A DNA stretch of 64,000 bases, taken from a virus (taxonomy: Duplodnaviria; Caudoviricetes). A program made the position numbers and the translations under genes. Every line of letters begins with the position of its first letter. Position 1 is the stretch's first letter. Below the pieces are notes generated by a model, which had not been told where the DNA came from, made no database searches, and saw only the letters and a program-made list of their open reading frames with translations. Of this stretch, positions 6,972-35,276 are shown piece after piece. The stretch spans positions 1-64,000 of IMG/VR virus record IMGVR_UViG_3300020045_004648; one strand, given 5' to 3'.

Positions 6972-7052
6972 GGTGTTTGCTCCAGTTTGTTAGATGGTGA
7001 GTAGACTATAACACAATTAAAGTGCATCATAGTCTAGGGTTTACCCTTAATC

Positions 7053-7530: not shown

Positions 7531-7790
7531 CTTTGCAACAGGTCTGAAAATGCAAACTAAGGGTAAACCCTAGTAATGTTGCAGAAAAACGACAGTTGTG
7601 GTGAAAAAGCAACAAAATCGAGAAAAACTGCCCCTATACCATTTTATTCCTAACACCCCAAGAGGGTTTTTGGGTCCAGTTATAGTATATGAGTTTTTGA
7701 AACTGAAATAGTTTTATTCCTATTCTGTAAACCATCTTAATTATTCAGACGGTGTGAGGTTTTGTTTTTCAATTTAATCTATGAGAATTT

Positions 7791-19915: not shown

Positions 19916-21160
19916 TTACAGAACGATCTTCTTCTCAAACACACTCTTGTCTGAATCCCTCCATTTGATTGACATAGGCACAGGGCAATCAATCTTGAAC
20001 CTCTCTCTAAACTTATCTGCCATAGTCAAGACAAGAAGTTCAAGGTGTTCTTTTGCTACAACAAAGCTATCATGCACACAAAGGATAGGGATTTCCTTCA
20101 ACACAAAGACTTCAAGGATGTCTGCTGCTAGGTGACTGTCTAGATTTTGGAGGACTCTACCAAAGGGTTCCATAGCAAAAAACAACCCTTCAAAGTCAGG
20201 GTAACTCTGTAGGATCAAGGCCATAACGGATCGTGCATTGCCTAGTGTGTAGATGGTCTTATCTTCTTCTGATAGTGTATTAATCTCACTCTGTATAGCT
20301 CGTTTAGCCGTATCACTCCGGTCACAATTGAACATGATGTTTACTGCGAGTTTCACAGTACGACGATCCACCTTGTTTGTGACATCTTCAAGGATGTCTG
20401 CGTACATATCTAGAGGGACTTCTTCCATAGGCACACCACATACCACAGCAGCAATACGGAAATGCAAGTTCTGAAAGTCTACCTCTACAACGGGCTTACC
20501 ATCAATAGTAATATCCAAACGCTGATCACCATCTTTGGAGTGCAACTGAAGAATATCAGCACGATAAAACCTCCCGCCCAGATCAAATGACTCATTGAAG
20601 ATTCGACTGTACACATTCGATAGTCTTTCACCATCTCTAGTTAGAACAGTGGCTTTCTCGTTCATTAAGTTAAGTTTGACAACCAGTGACTTCATCTTTT
20701 CAGTCTTATCATTGTGAGCATAACGCACAGGCTCCTTTTCTTTGTTCCTAAGAATAATGCTTTCTACAGCCTCAAGGTAGGCACGTTCAGTCTCCTCCAT
20801 CTCAATTTCAGACAGGATAGGGAATTCTTTCATAAATTTCTCCGTTGGTAGGATTGTACTAATAGTACGGTTTTCAGGAATGGGTGAGCCTCTGCCAACC
20901 AAGTTAGTAATGTAGCCCTGTTCTTCAAGAAAGTCAACAGCGTTCATGACTTGCCATACAGAAATGCCTCTCTTGGTTGTAGTGGAGTTCGATCCTTTGT
21001 TTCTAGAATACACAATAGCATTATTCTTTCGTATACCTGCTAAAAGATTAGTGATGACTACACCTAACACTACAGTGTCTTTGTACCTAAATTTTCTTAG
21101 TTTGTTTCTTACATGTTGTGGTATGGTTATGTCATAAGTGAGTAGTTTAGTGTTGAACAT
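19916..21160 (-). CDS. minimal superfamily-A polymerase-like protein (TV-Pol/T7-RNAP-like) with N-terminal wHTH
   Basis: Start MFNTKL with AGGAGG SD; motifs in order DLGGRFY, EVDFQNLH (A), RRTVK (B), LQNLDS, CVHDSF (C). Confidence 0.75.
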   Translation of the reverse strand: MFNTKLLTYDITIPQHVRNKLRKFRYKDTVVLGVVITNLLAGIRKNNAIVYSRNKGSNSTTTKRGISVWQVMNAVDFLEEQGYITNLVGRGSPIPENRTISTILPTEKFMKEFPILSEIEMEETERAYLEAVESIILRNKEKEPVRYAHNDKTEKMKSLVVKLNLMNEKATVLTRDGERLSNVYSRIFNESFDLGGRFYRADILQLHSKDGDQRLDITIDGKPVVEVDFQNLHFRIAAVVCGVPMEEVPLDMYADILEDVTNKVDRRTVKLAVNIMFNCDRSDTAKRAIQSEINTLSEEDKTIYTLGNARSVMALILQSYPDFEGLFFAMEPFGRVLQNLDSHLAADILEVFVLKEIPILCVHDSFVVAKEHLELLVLTMADKFRERFKIDCPVPMSIKWRDSDKSVFEKKIVL

Positions 21161-21349
21161 CGCAATCGCATTCCTCCTTGTTACGATAAAAACAAGAGTA
21201 TAACACAAGCAGACGGACATCCTCGTCCCTTCGGTGTACCCATATAAGGAAACAATCCCACAAGATCATGTGGAACTTTCAACGCTAGAGCTGAATTTTT
21301 AGACAAATAAATCTCTATAATTGTCGTAAACAAACAACACTCATTTCAC

Positions 21350-21379
21350 TTGACCTCCTTTCTTTAAAGGTGCTATGAT
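21350..21379 (+). promoter_or_regulatory. sigma70 promoter
   Basis: TTGACC-18-TATGAT, extended -10 TG. Confidence 0.6.
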
Positions 21380-21416
21380 AGCATAAATGAGACACGTCCT
21401 GCAAGTAAAATTTCTG

Positions 21417-21445
21417 TTGACGACCAGAAAAAGGTGTGTTACACT
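21417..21445 (+). promoter_or_regulatory. sigma70 promoter
   Basis: TTGACG-17-TACACT, extended -10 TG. Confidence 0.75.
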
Positions 21446-21473
21446 GCAAATATCAATGTACAAAGGAGAAGAA

Positions 21474-21695
21474 ATGACACCAACAGCAGAACAAGGAACT
21501 TACCTACCCCAAGCACATCGTTGGTCGTGGTGTGACTTCTGTGAAGCAGAGATAGTGATTTGCGGTACATGCGGAAACAACTGCTGTAATGGTGGTTATG
21601 GTGAAGTTATGGGACCAGAACCTGGAACTACGATGACTTGCCCTGATTGTCCATCTGCTTATCTGCTGCAATCAAATGGCTTGACACCATCCTAA
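21474..21695 (+). CDS. Cys-rich small protein
   Basis: Start MTPTAE, AAGGAG SD; CDFC, CGTC, CC, CPDC. Confidence 0.7.
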   Translation: MTPTAEQGTYLPQAHRWSWCDFCEAEIVICGTCGNNCCNGGYGEVMGPEPGTTMTCPDCPSAYLLQSNGLTPS

Positions 21696-29968: not shown

Positions 29969-30236
29969 ACTAATATATGGGATTCGCTACAAATATCTAC
30001 CAGAAGAAATAAAAGGTACAGTACAATATATGGTGGATAACGGTGAACTAGACTACGCCAGCCCTTACTATGATTCAGAGATTGATTCCTGGATTGTTGG
30101 GGTGGAGATTCCTTGCCGGGGTAAGGATCAGTATGTTCTCGGGTGTGAAGTAAATCATGTAGATGATACTATACCAGACATTCTTCGTAGGGATGATATT
30201 GAATTGTGGATGTATGTTACACCGCATGTGAGTTAG
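29952..30236 (+). CDS. hypothetical protein
   Basis: GGAGAGG SD. Confidence 0.7.
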   Translation: MSIAAKLIYGIRYKYLPEEIKGTVQYMVDNGELDYASPYYDSEIDSWIVGVEIPCRGKDQYVLGCEVNHVDDTIPDILRRDDIELWMYVTPHVS

Positions 30237-30244
30237 GGGGTTTA

Positions 30245-31897
30245 ATGAGTTATGATCGAAAGTTCAACGAAAGGAGTGCAGTGCAAAAAACTACACCAAA
30301 AGAAACAGTAAAAGAAGTTCTCAAGTACCCGTTTGTAGAAGCGAAGGATCGTAAGGTTCGTAAGGAGACTTGTGAACGCTTTGGCATCCGTGCAGCTTTA
30401 TCTGAGAAAGATGGGAAGACTGTAGAGGCTTATTACTTTCCTTCTTATAATCAAAAGGGACAAGTTGTTGGCTTCATGAAGCAGGACATTACAAAGGGTA
30501 AAGAGGAAGATGGTCACTGGACAGCAGTAGGTTCTGTAAATATCCAGAATAAGCTCTTCGGTCAGGATGTGGCTGAAAGTATTAACCGCAAGCGTGTTAA
30601 CCTAGTTTGCACTGAAGGGGCCTGGGATTGTGCTAGCACATTTCAAGCACTTGTAGATAGTGTAAAGGGTACTAAGTACGAAGGTATGGAACCTCAAGTA
30701 GTTTCTATCCCTTTGGGCACAAAGAACGCAGTAGAAGCTATCCTTCACAATGAAGCCTACGTGACATCTCACGACGCTCTGACTATTTATTTTGATGATG
30801 ATCACTGCACACCAGCAGAGACTAAGAAAGGCATCATGAAAGGCCATGAGGCTCGGGAGGCTGTGGCAGGGGCTTTGATTGATTCTGGGTTATCTATGAT
30901 GACTGTAACGGCTCAAGATGGCTTTAAGGATGCTTCTGATTATTTGCAAGCTGGGAAATCTTCTGAGTTGGCTAAACTGGTGCAGTTTGGGAAGAAGGTG
31001 TTTAGCACTGAGAAGATTGTACGGGCATCTGAGATTAGTTTTGATACGCTCATTGAAGAACAGCCAAAGGGTGTTATGATTGATTGCTTCCCAAAGCTGA
31101 TGGAGAGGCTCTACGGGTTCCGCGAAAAGGAACTCACAATGATTCTTGCCCCGGTAGGCGTCGGAAAATCAACTGTATGTTCTATTCTTGCGGACAATTT
31201 CATGAAAGCAGGCCACAAGGTTGGGATGATCTTCCTAGAGGAAGGTAACAAGGATACTTTTCAGCGATTGATTGCAGCAGAGCTGAAAGTTAATTATTTA
31301 AAGTTTAAACGAAACCCCCTCTCTGTATCTTCACGGGAAGCAATCAAGGAAGTTTACGATAAGATTACGGGTAATAATCAACTTGTGCTTTTAGACCACT
31401 TCGGAAGTATGCCAATTGATAGCTTGATGTCTAAAGTCAAGCACATGGTTCTTGTAGAAGGTTGTAAGTACATTCTACTGGATCATCTTTCGATGGTCGT
31501 GTCCGGGAATGAAGTAGAAAACGAACGAAAAGAGTTGGACATGGTGATGACTGCACTTGCAAGTTTCTGTGCGGCCAACTCGGTCCACTTGATAGTTGTG
31601 TGTCACATTAATAGAACGGACTCTGCACAATTTCTTCCACCAAAAGGAAAAGAAGGAGAACCATTCTGGGTTAATGTGCGTAAAGAATCTGCACGGGGTA
31701 GCGCAGCGTTGGAGCAATGTAGTTGGAATATTTTAGGTATTGAACCTGAAATTCTTCCTGACTTCTCACGAGGACGTGTTAGAATTAAAGTTCTGAAAAC
31801 CCGGTTTGGGGATTCTTTAGGGATCGCGGATGTTTTCACGCTTAATCCAGATACATGGGAAGTGGTATTGGATGATGGAGGTTCTGATAATTTTTAA
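30245..31897 (+). CDS. T7 gp4-like primase-helicase lacking the N-terminal Zn-binding domain
   Basis: TOPRIM TEG, YFDDD, KDASD; SF4 helicase Walker A APVGVGKS, LLDHL, HINR, ARGSAALEQ. Confidence 0.92.
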   Translation: MSYDRKFNERSAVQKTTPKETVKEVLKYPFVEAKDRKVRKETCERFGIRAALSEKDGKTVEAYYFPSYNQKGQVVGFMKQDITKGKEEDGHWTAVGSVNIQNKLFGQDVAESINRKRVNLVCTEGAWDCASTFQALVDSVKGTKYEGMEPQVVSIPLGTKNAVEAILHNEAYVTSHDALTIYFDDDHCTPAETKKGIMKGHEAREAVAGALIDSGLSMMTVTAQDGFKDASDYLQAGKSSELAKLVQFGKKVFSTEKIVRASEISFDTLIEEQPKGVMIDCFPKLMERLYGFREKELTMILAPVGVGKSTVCSILADNFMKAGHKVGMIFLEEGNKDTFQRLIAAELKVNYLKFKRNPLSVSSREAIKEVYDKITGNNQLVLLDHFGSMPIDSLMSKVKHMVLVEGCKYILLDHLSMVVSGNEVENERKELDMVMTALASFCAANSVHLIVVCHINRTDSAQFLPPKGKEGEPFWVNVRKESARGSAALEQCSWNILGIEPEILPDFSRGRVRIKVLKTRFGDSLGIADVFTLNPDTWEVVLDDGGSDNF

Positions 31898-31909: not shown

Positions 31910-34680
31910 ATGGACATGAATGAAACTGTAGATATTGTGCATGATGCAGAAGCCTCTGGGCTTTTGGATGATAGTACAGTAGACTACACAGCAAGTCCTT
32001 GGAAACTCAAGGACTCTTTTAAGATGCACATCGTGTCTGTTCAAGAGTTTCCAAGTCAAGAGTTTATTGCATTTTACGATGGTCCTAAAATTATTCTAGA
32101 CGGAAGAACTCACAGTCAAGAAATTGAAGGCGTGGAATACAGGCTGGAGGATTACGAGCCGTTGGAATACAAGCATTTTCCACTTGCAAAGTTTAAGGAT
32201 TACATCAAGAAGCGAAAGATTAATAAAGCTATTGCACACAATGGCATCAACTATGACTTGCTTGCGTATAAGGCTTACTTTGGTCTTGACTATTCCGTAC
32301 GGGAAGAAGGCGATACGTGGGCAGGTAATATTGTGGAACACGTTGACACAATGATCCTTTCAAAAGTACTTAATCCAGATCGTATCGGTGGGCATAGTCT
32401 TGAGAATGTAGCCAAGCAGGCAGGAGGTGTGCAGAAGAAAGAGTTTCGTTATGGAATGTCTAAAGACCTTCGGTTTAAGCACTTTGCTGCGGACATGTTG
32501 CATTACAATCTGTTTGATTTGAAGTCTAATAAGTCCGTCTATAGCTACTTGATGAAGGAAAAGGGTAATCATGATTGGAGTAGTGCTATCACTACAGAGA
32601 AGTGCATTGCCGATATCATTACGCGACAAGCCCACCGGGGGTTTGCTTTTGATGCAGAACTTGCGGAAAAGAATGTTAAAGAACTTGATGTAATGATGCA
32701 TGAGGCACGTATTAAGGTTGAACCTATTCTTCCACCTAAGACTGCTACCAAGGGGTTCATGAAGGACTTCACGCCTCCAAAGAATCAATACAAGAAGGAT
32801 GGTTCTTTGTCACATCACATGGAGAACTTCATTGAGAAGTTGCAAGCTAAGAAGATTGAGCAAGATGGTAAGGTTATTGGTATTGAATTCCAAGGTAAGA
32901 CTTATGAACTTCCATTAGAAGAAGGAAAAGCCTTAGTAACAGAAGTCCCTGCTACCTTAAATGATACTACTCACATCAAAGAGTGGTTGGTTAGTCTAGG
33001 ATGGTCGCCATCAGAGTACAAGGAAAAAGACCTAACCCTGAAGACTGGAACTAAGATTAAACTAACACAAGAGGAGTATACCAAGACGGTAGATAAGTAC
33101 GTAGAACAGACTTTGAACTCTAGCCTCATGGAAGATCGTTGTGAGTTCTTAGAATGTACCCCTCGTACCCTAAAAAGTAAATTACTTTCTGTTAAGAATG
33201 GTAGGGGTATGAGGGTACGTACTAATCCTAGTTTTACTAAAGGCCAGGACAAGGAAATGTGTACGCACCTTGAGGCACTTGGAGAGAAGTTCCCGTTTGC
33301 TACTGATATTGTGAAATACTTGACGTATAAGCATAGGCGTAATTCTATCCTTGGGGGTGGTGCTGATTGGGACGATGAGGAAGATGCTGAGAAGGGCTTT
33401 ATATCTGCTGTAAGGGCAGACGGACGAATCCCAACTCCAGCGGATACTTGTGGATGTGCTACCTCACGCATGAAGCACAAATTAGTAGCAAACATTGCTC
33501 GTGTAACTTCCCTTTATGGGGAGCCTATGAGGGCTATGTTTATGGCTGATCCAGAAGATTGCTACCAGATTGGTTACGATTTTGCTAGTCTTGAGGCTGT
33601 TATTGAAGCGCACTATTGTTTTAAGTATGAAAGTCCTAATGAAGAAGGCACTAGAGAGTATTGCACATCTCTTCTACAAGAAAAGCCTAATGATGTTCAT
33701 ACTAAGATGAGCCAGAAGATTTCAGGGATCATTGGAAGTAAGTTTGAACGTGGCCCTGCAAAGAGCGTAAAATATGGTTGTACCTATGGGGCACAAGCAG
33801 CTAAGGTTGCTAAGACAATTGGTTCAGATTTGCAGGTAGGTCAGCAAGTCTTTGATGCCTTCTGGCAAGCTGCAGCACCACTAAAGAGACTAAAAGATGC
33901 CTTGCAAAAGCACTGGGAGAGTAACGATAAAAAGTACATCCTTACTATGGATAATAGAAAGGTTCCTACTCGTGCTGCACATGCCATCTTAAATAGTTTA
34001 TTTCAGTCTGCTGGTGTTATTTGTGCAAAGAAGACGATGATTATCTGGGAGCGGAAGATGCGAGAGCATGGACTACTAGTAGACTTCTGGACGGAGGATT
34101 GGAAGAACAAGTTGTGGGCACAACAGATGATAGCCTACCATAAATAATTGTGGCTTTGTATCGTGAGGTACATCGAAAAATCTTTTTAATTGCTGGAAAA
34201 CTAAGGGCGAAAGCCTATGTCAATCAGCAGGGAAGCCTAGAAATAGGAACCTTCAGAGACTATCCCGAGAGGGAGTAGGTTGCAAGTGCAATCGAAATGG
34301 AAGAGGTCTTACTAAGTAAGATCGTGAGATAGTCCGATCCTGCGGGAAACCGTAAGGCTGCAAGTAAAGTTGCGGGAGAGATTAACGAACTCTCTGAACT
34401 GTTGGATGAGGCGCAAATCGAAGTGTCCAAGAAGTTGGTGAAATTTAAAACTTTTGCCAGCAAGGAAGAATGTAACGAGTTCCGAAAGGAACAATATGAG
34501 ACTAATGGGTTAATTTGGGCTGAGACTCATGAAAGTCCAAAAGGTGGTTGGTTCACAGCCTATAGTTTACCTGGGCAATTAGTAGTAGAGGCTGTAAGAG
34601 AGACAACGGAGTTTTATAAACTAAATTGTCCTTTATCCGCTGATTATGTTTTGGGAACCAGTTGGGCAAATTGCCATTAA
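31910..34680 (+). CDS. polA: family A DNA polymerase with 3'-5' exonuclease, spliced join(31910..34141,34405..34680), 835 aa
   Basis: ExoI DAEASG, TSR, motif A GYDFASLE, motif B RGPAKSVKYGCTYG; motif C YH|DE is restored only after intron removal. Confidence 0.95.
34142..34404 (+). ncRNA. group I self-splicing intron (263 nt, ORF-less)
   Basis: Exon ends in U, intron ends in G; P1 CCAU/GUGG; P AAUUGCUGGAAA, Q AAUCAGCAGG, R UUCAGAGACUA, S GAGAUAGUCC; P7 GACUA/UAGUC; GNRA loops. Confidence 0.93.
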
Positions 34681-34694
34681 TAAAAAGGAAAAAG

Positions 34695-35276
34695 ATGAAA
34701 CAAATAATTTTTAAAGGTAGAGTTGTAGATAAGTGGATCACTAAGGAGGGTAAAGTCCTAGACGCAGAAGGGGCGGAAATGCTACTGTCTGATAATGGAA
34801 TGGGCTATCTATCTGCGTATCTTTACCCATATAAGAAGGATGGTGTGTGCAAAAGTCAGAGGGAGTATGTGCATCGCTTAGTCGCAATGATGTTTCTTGA
34901 AAATCCAGAAAACTTGCCACAAGTAAACCACATAGATTGTGATAAATCTAACAATCATGTTGATAATTTAGAATGGGCAAGTAAACCATACAACATTGCA
35001 GAGGCACACAAAAATGGAAGAATGCAAAAGCGTTATGATGTTGGTCCTGTGGTATACTTAACACCAGAAGAAGTCAGAGATGTCTACACTTCTGTGGTCA
35101 CTGGTAAAGAGGGCATATCTGAAGTAGGTAGACGGATTGGACGTTCACGTACTACAATCAGTAGTATTATCAATAAGAGAAGCAGGAGGGACATCACTGA
35201 CTTGATTGACAAGGAACTAAACTTATGCAAAAACCTTTCAAATACCTATACAACAACAAGTTTTCCTGTATACTAA
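34695..35276 (+). mobile_element. free-standing HNH homing endonuclease (I-HmuI-like)
   Basis: YVHRLVA..F...P..LPQVNHIDCDKSNNHVDNLEW plus C-terminal HTH; start moved to ATG 34695. Confidence 0.9.

Follow-up and report, generated by a model that had tools for sequence, protein, structure and literature searches.

The divPolA2 family was described in 2024 by Yutin, Tolstoy, Mutz, Wolf, Krupovic and Koonin (Virol J 21:200; PMC11348598) in 110 barbaviruses and other Caudoviricetes. One to three paralogues occur per genome, in variable neighbourhoods. The palm is apparently active, the thumb and the exonuclease are absent, and the N-terminal globular domain, with 'no detectable similarity' to known domains, was left unassigned. 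The prototypes are gp034 of the Rheinheimera barbavirus and AUR84708 of a Vibrio phage, and a role as a repair polymerase or an RNA polymerase was proposed (PMC11348598). Here we analyse a gene (P0001) in a 64,000-nucleotide stretch of a Caudoviricetes phage (positions 1 to 64,000 of the IMG/VR record IMGVR_UViG_3300020045_004648), called the window below. The coding region occupies 19916..21160 on the minus strand, stop codon included, and encodes 414 amino acids. The product is identified with high confidence as a minimal winged-helix family-A polymerase of the divPolA2 family; as for its function, a role in starting replication is tentatively favoured. New here are the winged-helix assignment, the link to integrases and resolvases in bacteria, the set of invariant residues, a test of the idea that the enzyme makes up for a missing primase zinc finger, and a family member paired with PolA and a primase lacking that finger.

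Two further described systems are close. A subset of TV-Pol proteins carrying an N-terminal domain, predicted in 2008 to be all-helical, was reported in the context of integrases and resolvases (Iyer, Abhiman, Aravind 2008; PMC2579912). CCPol, the one characterised TV-Pol, is Pol I-like (PMC10201439). Lacking an exonuclease, this family-A polymerase turns into a DNA primase on binding MP (PMC7581432).

An open reading frame (ORF) at the locus spans 19916..21220 on the minus strand, with 434 amino acids from the first ATG. The ATG at 21160 is the likely start, since homologues begin with MFNTKLL there; GGAGG was read directly 12 nt upstream of it (21177-21173, minus strand). An earlier note on this DNA had listed a 414-residue ORF with a series of motifs, and all of them are present in the translation, in the order and with the spacing given there: ISVWQVMNAVDFLEEQGYI at residue 66, DLGGRFY at 193, EVDFQNLH at 226, RRTVK at 266, LQNLDS at 337 and VHDSF at 362. 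The gene matches phrog_4756 (E 3e-57).

A homologue search yielded 207 word-sharing homologues, with E-values down to 1e-107 among the 120 matches listed, and the family profile retrieved 6,743 clusters at 50% identity (E<=1e-3); such numbers go well beyond chance. By tblastn, 115 Rheinheimera Barba records were matched (E 3e-7). Comparison with gp034 of Barba18A by hhalign gave a probability of 98.3 and E 1.4e-14 over 250 columns. In BFVD the 'DNA polymerase' of Barba31A was matched at E 5e-18 and ordinary PolAs at 1e-7 or weaker. Given this homology to the barbavirus prototype, the protein is a divergent member of divPolA2 and not a new kind. The earlier note had called it the best candidate for an undescribed system; this cannot be upheld, as the family is already published.

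The protein shares with divPolA2 a length of about 415-435 residues, a palm and fingers of the PolA type containing motifs A, B and C, the absence of an exonuclease and a canonical thumb, the N-terminal globular domain, the presence of a regular replicative polymerase in the same genome, and structural matches to DNA polymerases and to mitochondrial and N4 RNA polymerases. On the other hand, it is only about 26-28% identical to the barbavirus prototype, has His at position D+5 of motif A, where the barbavirus protein has Trp, and is accompanied by PolA and a gp4-like primase-helicase, whereas the barbavirus protein is accompanied by PolB. Among the matches listed, the nearest relatives from isolates are those of the Vibrio phages HNL01 (37%) and 1.121.O (33%). 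Relatives from metagenomes are 45-86% identical; the contigs that carry them reach ~95 kb, with many in the range 83-95 kb.

The AlphaFold2 model was built from an alignment of 39 sequences and has pLDDT 90.9 and pTM 0.87 over the full length. Foldseek against the PDB returned family-A polymerases only (E 8e-6 to 1e-3, probability ~1.0). In a VIA-align run over 48,161 chains the best match was the apicoplast polymerase apPol (Z 14.6, 245 residues aligned, rmsd 4.0). Other DNA polymerases were Pol nu (Z 14.4), Klenow (13.5), Aquifex Pol I (13.3) and T7 DNA polymerase (12.5); the RNA polymerases (RNAPs) were those of yeast mitochondria (Z 13.1), T7 (11.2) and N4 (RNAPII, 7.8). Many of the best PolA alignments cover residues ~125-410, starting at ~122-136. 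The right-hand family-A fold proposed in the earlier note is thus borne out by the model and by its matches to PolAs.

At the sequence level, Pfam gave no match of the polymerase to PF00476 or PF00940 at E<=10, only a chance match to Volactin, and only sub-threshold, chance-level matches (Volactin; DUF7277) for the polymerase together with ten distant relatives. Among PDB sequences, phmmer and profile searches recovered no polymerase and only sub-significant winged-helix matches, and a search of the ESM Atlas found unnamed clusters only. The narrow family profile had no significant hhalign match to single sequences (T7 RNAP, probability 0.1; N4 gp16, 8.5) or to the window's own PolA. Since the comparisons with single sequences are not significant, the relation to PolA and to the RNA polymerases is a structural one only. 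The protein has the fold of a canonical family-A DNA polymerase, but not its Pfam match, its motif A Glu or its Phe/Tyr-Gly.

The N-terminal domain (residues ~13-117; 20810..21124, minus strand) is winged-helix (wHTH-like) by structure searches and by separate folding. The N-terminal 135 residues folded alone give a compact domain with pLDDT 88.8. All 50 of its top 50 VIA matches are winged-helix proteins (Z up to 6.8), among them GntR, HxlR, MarR, PadR, Fur, ribosomal proteins of the S19e/S25e type, ORC, ScpA and MotA; Foldseek gave MarR/PadR (E 0.01, probability 0.98). In the full-length VIA-align run a block of winged-helix proteins follows below the polymerases (Z 6-7, residues ~15-130). 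Profile matches below significance fall in the same register, covering helix 3 and the wing: a PadR-like protein (1xma, E 0.088) and the C-terminal winged helix of RPA32 (E 0.24). The scores are moderate but the match lists are uniform, and therefore the winged-helix fold class, suspected already in the earlier note, is credible.

The domain is followed by a short helical linker at the position of the thumb (residues ~118-180; 20621..20809, minus strand). Helices 118-131 and 151-169 precede the hairpin described below, as assigned from the secondary structure of the model. The model contains no canonical thumb and no 3'-5' exonuclease domain, and the linker, with its two helices, may serve as a vestigial thumb. 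In lacking an exonuclease, a thumb insert and a specificity loop, the protein agrees with the earlier note.

Conservation was counted in 107 diverse representatives, 22-48% identical to the query. Residues R197, R214, E226, D228, Y253, K270, H363 and D364 are invariant in all 107, the set including both catalytic Asp residues (D228 and D364); G196, H233, D251, R266, N278, L337 and S365 are conserved in at least 90%. Together with the model, this pattern predicts a catalytically competent polymerase core. The beta-hairpin containing GGRFY (residues 185-199; 20564..20608, minus strand) consists of strands 185-189 and 196-199 in the model and carries R197, which by position corresponds to R668 of Klenow and R425 of T7 RNAP; the hairpin reads DLGGRFY here and DWRGRVY in T7 RNAP.

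Motif A is VVEVDFQNLHFR (residues 222-235; 20456..20497, minus strand). In the model secondary structure its catalytic D228 lies where a strand gives way to a helix. The motif reads VDFQNLHFR here, YDFASLEAV in the window's PolA and FDGSCSGIQH in T7 RNAP. H233, at D+5, takes the place that the steric-gate Glu has in PolA; the residue there is His also in the bacterial forms and Trp in the barbavirus prototype (DYSQLWPR). As judged from the motif register, not from superposition, such a bulky gate residue suggests exclusion of the 2'-OH and thus a leaning to dNTPs.

Motif B is an O-helix with the pattern R266xxxK270xxxN274xxxN278 (residues 263-278; 20327..20374, minus strand), helical in the model and devoid of Tyr and Phe: RRTVKLAVNIMFN here versus RSVTKRSVMTLAYG in T7 RNAP and RGPAKSVKYGCTYG in the window's PolA. 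Phe and Tyr have given way to Asn274 and Asn278, so that both the Phe/Tyr of DNA polymerases and the Tyr of RNA polymerases are missing; by spacing, N278 is at the position of Klenow Y766 and T7 RNAP Y639, and the earlier note was right that the usual YG is lacking. Motif C, the hairpin CVHDSFVV (residues 360-369; 20054..20083, minus strand), carries the catalytic D364, which the model secondary structure places, together with H363, in the turn of a beta-hairpin. It reads VHDSF here and IHDSFGT in T7 RNAP, and the frame of the window's PolA ends with AYH before an intron. The signature is therefore mixed, as the earlier note had it: HDSF and DxxGRxY are similar to T7 RNAP, and motif A has a PolA-like frame. 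On the choice of nucleotide, HDSF and GRxY point to the RNA-polymerase branch.

One possibility is that the protein is a minimal single-subunit RNA polymerase for a subset of phage genes, in which promoter recognition would fall to the winged helix, as a replacement for the N-terminal domain and specificity loop of T7 RNAP. An RNA polymerase, an option raised by Yutin et al. (PMC11348598), is consistent with the parallels of VHDSF and DLGGRFY to T7 RNAP, the structural matches to the mitochondrial, T7 and N4 enzymes, the loss of the PolA steric-gate Glu and motif B Phe/Tyr, the occurrence of up to three paralogues per genome, and the location of the gene in an early arm close to a promoter, like the RNA polymerase genes of T7 and N4. 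However, the window protein lacks the promoter-binding N-terminal domain, specificity loop and intercalating hairpin of T7-like RNA polymerases, and in the sequence register it has a bulky His (Trp in barbaviruses) for Gly542 and Asn for the 2'-OH-sensing Tyr639. Sequence-level similarity to T7 RNAP or N4 gp16 was not found, and relatives reside in small integrase/resolvase elements that would have little need for a transcriptase of their own.

The promoter evidence also speaks against a dedicated transcriptase. A k-mer search allowing one mismatch in the 48 intergenic gaps of the 84-kb genome found no repeated word that could serve as a promoter or target, although promoters as weakly conserved as the middle ones of N4 would be missed; the best 11-mers are rich in A or resemble Shine-Dalgarno sequences. 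The extended -10 sequence TGGTATAAT occurs in 12 of these 48 gaps, and thus host sigma-70 transcription looks general. On balance, we consider an RNA polymerase a less likely but live alternative; if it were one, it would be the smallest that is guided by promoters.

The gene belongs to a complete phage genome of 84,368 bp with four arms: plus strand, from 80.2 kb over the ends to 2.2 kb; minus strand, 21.2 to 2.1 kb; plus strand, 21.4 to 49.4 kb; and minus strand, 80.1 to 49.5 kb. The leftward arm, made of many small ORFs, begins with the polymerase gene. The rightward arm encodes the gp4-like primase-helicase, PolA, an exonuclease, thymidylate synthase and ribonucleotide reductase, and the arm after it holds tail genes. 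The two arms that meet at the polymerase gene are separated by a divergent intergenic region of 226 bp (21161..21386, defined from the arm map), and the location at a divergence point is thus as the earlier note had stated. Rightward sigma-70-like sites were found at 21350-21379 and 21417-21445. On the minus strand, TGtTATACT at 21205-21197 resembles an extended -10 element (read directly, not scored by the scan). The cumulative GC skew has its minimum at ~21-22 kb, which is confounded by the switch of the transcribed strand there. In two relatives at 49-51% identity the polymerase is also the first gene past a divergent intergenic region; in the barbavirus it is the second gene, in the arm leading to the primase and PolB.

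Another reading is an accessory DNA polymerase that would act in repair, as Yutin et al. also proposed (PMC11348598), or in gap filling, lesion bypass or synthesis dependent on recombination. It would have no part in initiation, and the winged helix would only be a substitute thumb gripping the duplex. Here the absent exonuclease domain, the constant presence of a separate replicative polymerase and the bulky steric-gate residue, which fits the use of dNTPs, all agree. The winged-helix residues invariant in the close set (N38, Y51, R53, S101) suggest a constant structural or backbone contact over reading of varied sequences, and in HNL01 (L004:5818-8858) the homologue is directly followed by a gene for a UvrD/Rep-type SF1 helicase. 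However, the first-gene position in an early arm, kept in relatives of ~85-90 kb, is unusual for a repair enzyme, gap filling is already supplied by the replicative PolA, and repair hardly explains why it should be, next to the recombinase, the principal conserved gene of integrative elements. We regard a pure repair role as rather unlikely, if a live alternative.

The relatives in bacteria include longer forms (450-600 residues) with the same N-terminal signature NL..YSRN..DAL.E.GYI and core motifs, from which they differ by a variable insert. Among species-representative genomes, the hosts are Rhodobacterales (including Loktanella and Sulfitobacter), Sphingomonadales, Rhizobiales, Desulfobacterales, Ignavibacteria and others. 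When the three nearest ORFs on either side were considered at 78 bacterial loci, a tyrosine integrase was found at 34 and a resolvase, of the gamma-delta type, at 12; restriction-modification genes also occur around these loci. In a reciprocal search the Loktanella protein matched the same phage genes, and tblastn with this form recovered ORF100 of phage ICP1, a presumptive family member. In this well-studied cholera phage, ORF100 (NC_015157.1; L087:6026-7693) is a 555-residue long-form homologue annotated as hypothetical; it stands third in the row of genes behind an annotated sigma-70-type promoter. The literature was searched for ICP1 gp100, with no relevant result. Together with Vibrio phage HNL01 and the Barba phages, ICP1 ORF100 provides a cultivable handle on the family.

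In Loktanella sp. D2R18 the element with the polymerase gene is flanked by two tyrosine integrase genes. The divergent neighbour of the polymerase gene (L031:3878-5023, minus strand) encodes 381 residues with a DnaG-type CHC2 zinc ribbon and AbiJ N-terminal domain 5, and has no TOPRIM domain. A small contig (L001), in which a long form adjoins an integrase, has no terminal overlap and is not callable as a complete circular element.

The context in bacteria agrees with the resemblance to TV-Pol pointed out in the earlier note. The shared core features are a minimal family-A core without a nuclease, the hairpin Arg (R197), the two catalytic Asp residues (D228 and D364), and the fingers Asp with RxxxK (D251 and R266 conserved in at least 90%, K270 invariant). 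From these and from the shared context we infer membership in TV-Pol. There are also differences: the N-terminal domain is a winged helix here, as opposed to the all-helical prediction, and no D5-like helicase fusion or neighbour was seen, the window phage included. TV-Pol proteins have a thumb of two helices in an antiparallel coiled coil, for which helices 118-131 and 151-169 may be candidates. Named TV-Pol members, besides CCPol, come from Sputnik (V13), Ma-LMM01, Loktanella vestfoldensis and Brucella; Ma-LMM01 and Sputnik are absent from the phage tblastn results and from the best 50 BFVD matches.

A third alternative is that the gene is a selfish or conflict polymerase outside core replication and transcription, either the remnant of a TV-Pol-type element or a maker of nucleic acid directed against host defence. 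The bacterial relatives indeed occur on mobile elements among restriction-modification cargo, the phage neighbourhoods are variable and paralogues occur (PMC11348598), and in the window the gene stands among many small early genes whose functions are unknown. On the other hand, there is no integrase or resolvase near the polymerase gene in the window phage, the relatives at 49-51% identity whose context was examined have the gene in the same genomic position, and no PADLOC or anti-defence evidence was found, with no search aimed at it. This makes such an origin or use very improbable.

The primase-helicase of the phage is gp4-like (30245..31897, plus strand; phrog_239, E 9e-123). The earlier note had it lacking the zinc-binding domain, and this is confirmed: the match begins at position 87 of the phrog_239 profile, the protein starts with MSYDRKF (ATG at 30245, in an ORF at 30206-31897) and has no CxxC pairs before the TOPRIM part, Pfam gave DnaB_C only, and no match to the primase zinc-ribbon families PF08273 and PF01807 was found anywhere in the whole genome. 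From this the note had concluded that the polymerase exists to substitute for or complement a crippled primase. However, the primase of one relative (L089, 11294-13006) is extended at its N-terminus by ~68 residues that include a Cys/His ... CxxC motif, and aligns to the window enzyme only from its residue 69 on, and the polymerase of this relative is orthologous and 49% identical to that of the window. The barbavirus primase-helicase gp023 also has a Cys motif. Since the zinc motif is kept in a genome with an orthologous polymerase, the loss of the zinc finger is lineage-specific and does not explain the family; in the window phage it may be tolerated thanks to the polymerase.

The regular PolA (31910..34147, plus strand; phrog_17, PF00476) contains the exonuclease and polymerase domains. 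Its frame stops at motif C (...MIAYHK*), where a group I intron was found at 34131-34356 (Rfam RF00028, 77.5 bits, E 4e-20). A stop-to-stop frame at 34333-34680 has DEAQIEV from ~34405 and is likely the second polA exon. The full PolA mentioned in the earlier note is therefore present, but complete only after the intron has been spliced out.

ColE2 Rep is the origin-binding primase of a plasmid and combines site recognition and synthesis of the first primer in one protein, leaving the remaining synthesis to other polymerases. Its catalytic fold differs from that of the window protein; the concept is the same, and no homology is claimed. Family-A polymerases are thought to need a primer, CCPol-MP being the sole exception. 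CCPol-MP, encoded on SCCmec (Bebel et al. 2020, eLife), is likewise an exonuclease-less family-A polymerase on a mobile element, and provides experimental proof that a family-A core can start DNA chains. CCPol depends on a small OB-fold partner, MP, and acts together with the helicase Cch2; neither was recognised here from PHROG matches of the downstream ORFs or among recurring neighbours.

We favour, at somewhat less than an even chance, a site-directed enzyme that starts nucleic-acid chains in replication initiation or priming. The polymerase would be made early from a host-type promoter, the winged helix would hold or position the DNA, and the core would start or extend a short chain, to be taken over by the phage replisome. 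Initiation or priming could thus proceed in the manner of ColE2 Rep, of CCPol-MP, or of T7 or mitochondrial RNA polymerases at origins. In the window phage it may, in addition, make up for the primase without a zinc finger, but this cannot be a role of the family in general. Several points favour a role in starting replication. Firstly, next to the recombinase it is the polymerase gene that is mainly conserved in small integrative elements. Secondly, in the Loktanella element it is paired with the DnaG-type zinc-ribbon protein. Thirdly, it is the first gene past a divergent region in the phage and in two relatives. Finally, there is the CCPol-MP precedent for a family-A core, and the window primase-helicase has no zinc-binding domain. 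Large and widespread, and joining only a catalytic core to a DNA-binding-type domain, the family is a promising source of new ways in which phages and integrative elements might start replication.

Several observations speak against such a role. The winged helix, matched at Z 6-7 only, could replace the thumb without sequence specificity. Searches for repeats beside the gene and beside the homologous genes in L088, L089 and Barba18A gave short two-copy matches and no iterons; with no enriched motif either, recognition of a repeated DNA motif, suggested in the earlier note, finds no support. As the gene also occurs in relatives with intact primase zinc motifs, a second primase is not obviously needed. 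No recurring neighbour, be it a helicase, SSB or an MP-like partner, was found beside the gene in relatives, and a search, itself weak, for longer fused forms (726-2070 residues), including fusions to D5-like or other helicases, found none. CCPol is a loose analogy and no close relative, because it retains the PolA Glu and Phe (PMC7581432), whereas the family does not. The match of HDSF and GRxY to T7 RNAP, shared along with the fold (Z 11-13) and the early-gene position, fits a transcriptase equally well, and Yutin et al., who describe the neighbourhood as variable, suggest a repair or an RNA polymerase (PMC11348598). The broader proposal that divPolA2 and the forms in integrative elements constitute a widespread third kind of primase or initiator, with a de novo start guided by the winged helix, which in the window phage would have let the gp4-like primase lose its zinc finger, is more doubtful than not.

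A dyad, AGGGTNNACCCT, was considered as a target and rejected: it has 4 matches with at most one mismatch in the window, a number not beyond chance (reached in 3 of 100 shuffles), and none of them is near the gene. Two perfect copies of the dyad AGGGT(NN)ACCCT lie 524 bp apart in the distal leftward arm (7036-7047 and 7560-7571). The genome has an exact direct terminal repeat of 121 bp (1-121 and 84248-84368), and the record may be a circularly closed assembly, because the plus-strand arm at 80.2-84.4 kb continues into 1-2.2 kb. A search of sequencing runs for the phage found only small shares in contigs of wastewater and freshwater metagenomes, and no RNA run was listed.

Downstream of the polymerase gene, ORFs of 62 and 96 residues match only PHROGs of unknown function. 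A gene for an HNH endonuclease (34662-35276) follows the region of the polA intron. The first gene of the rightward arm (21387-21695, plus strand) has no Pfam or PHROG match and encodes a Cys-rich protein of 102 residues (CDFC ... CGTCGNNCC ... CPDC), which may bind zinc.

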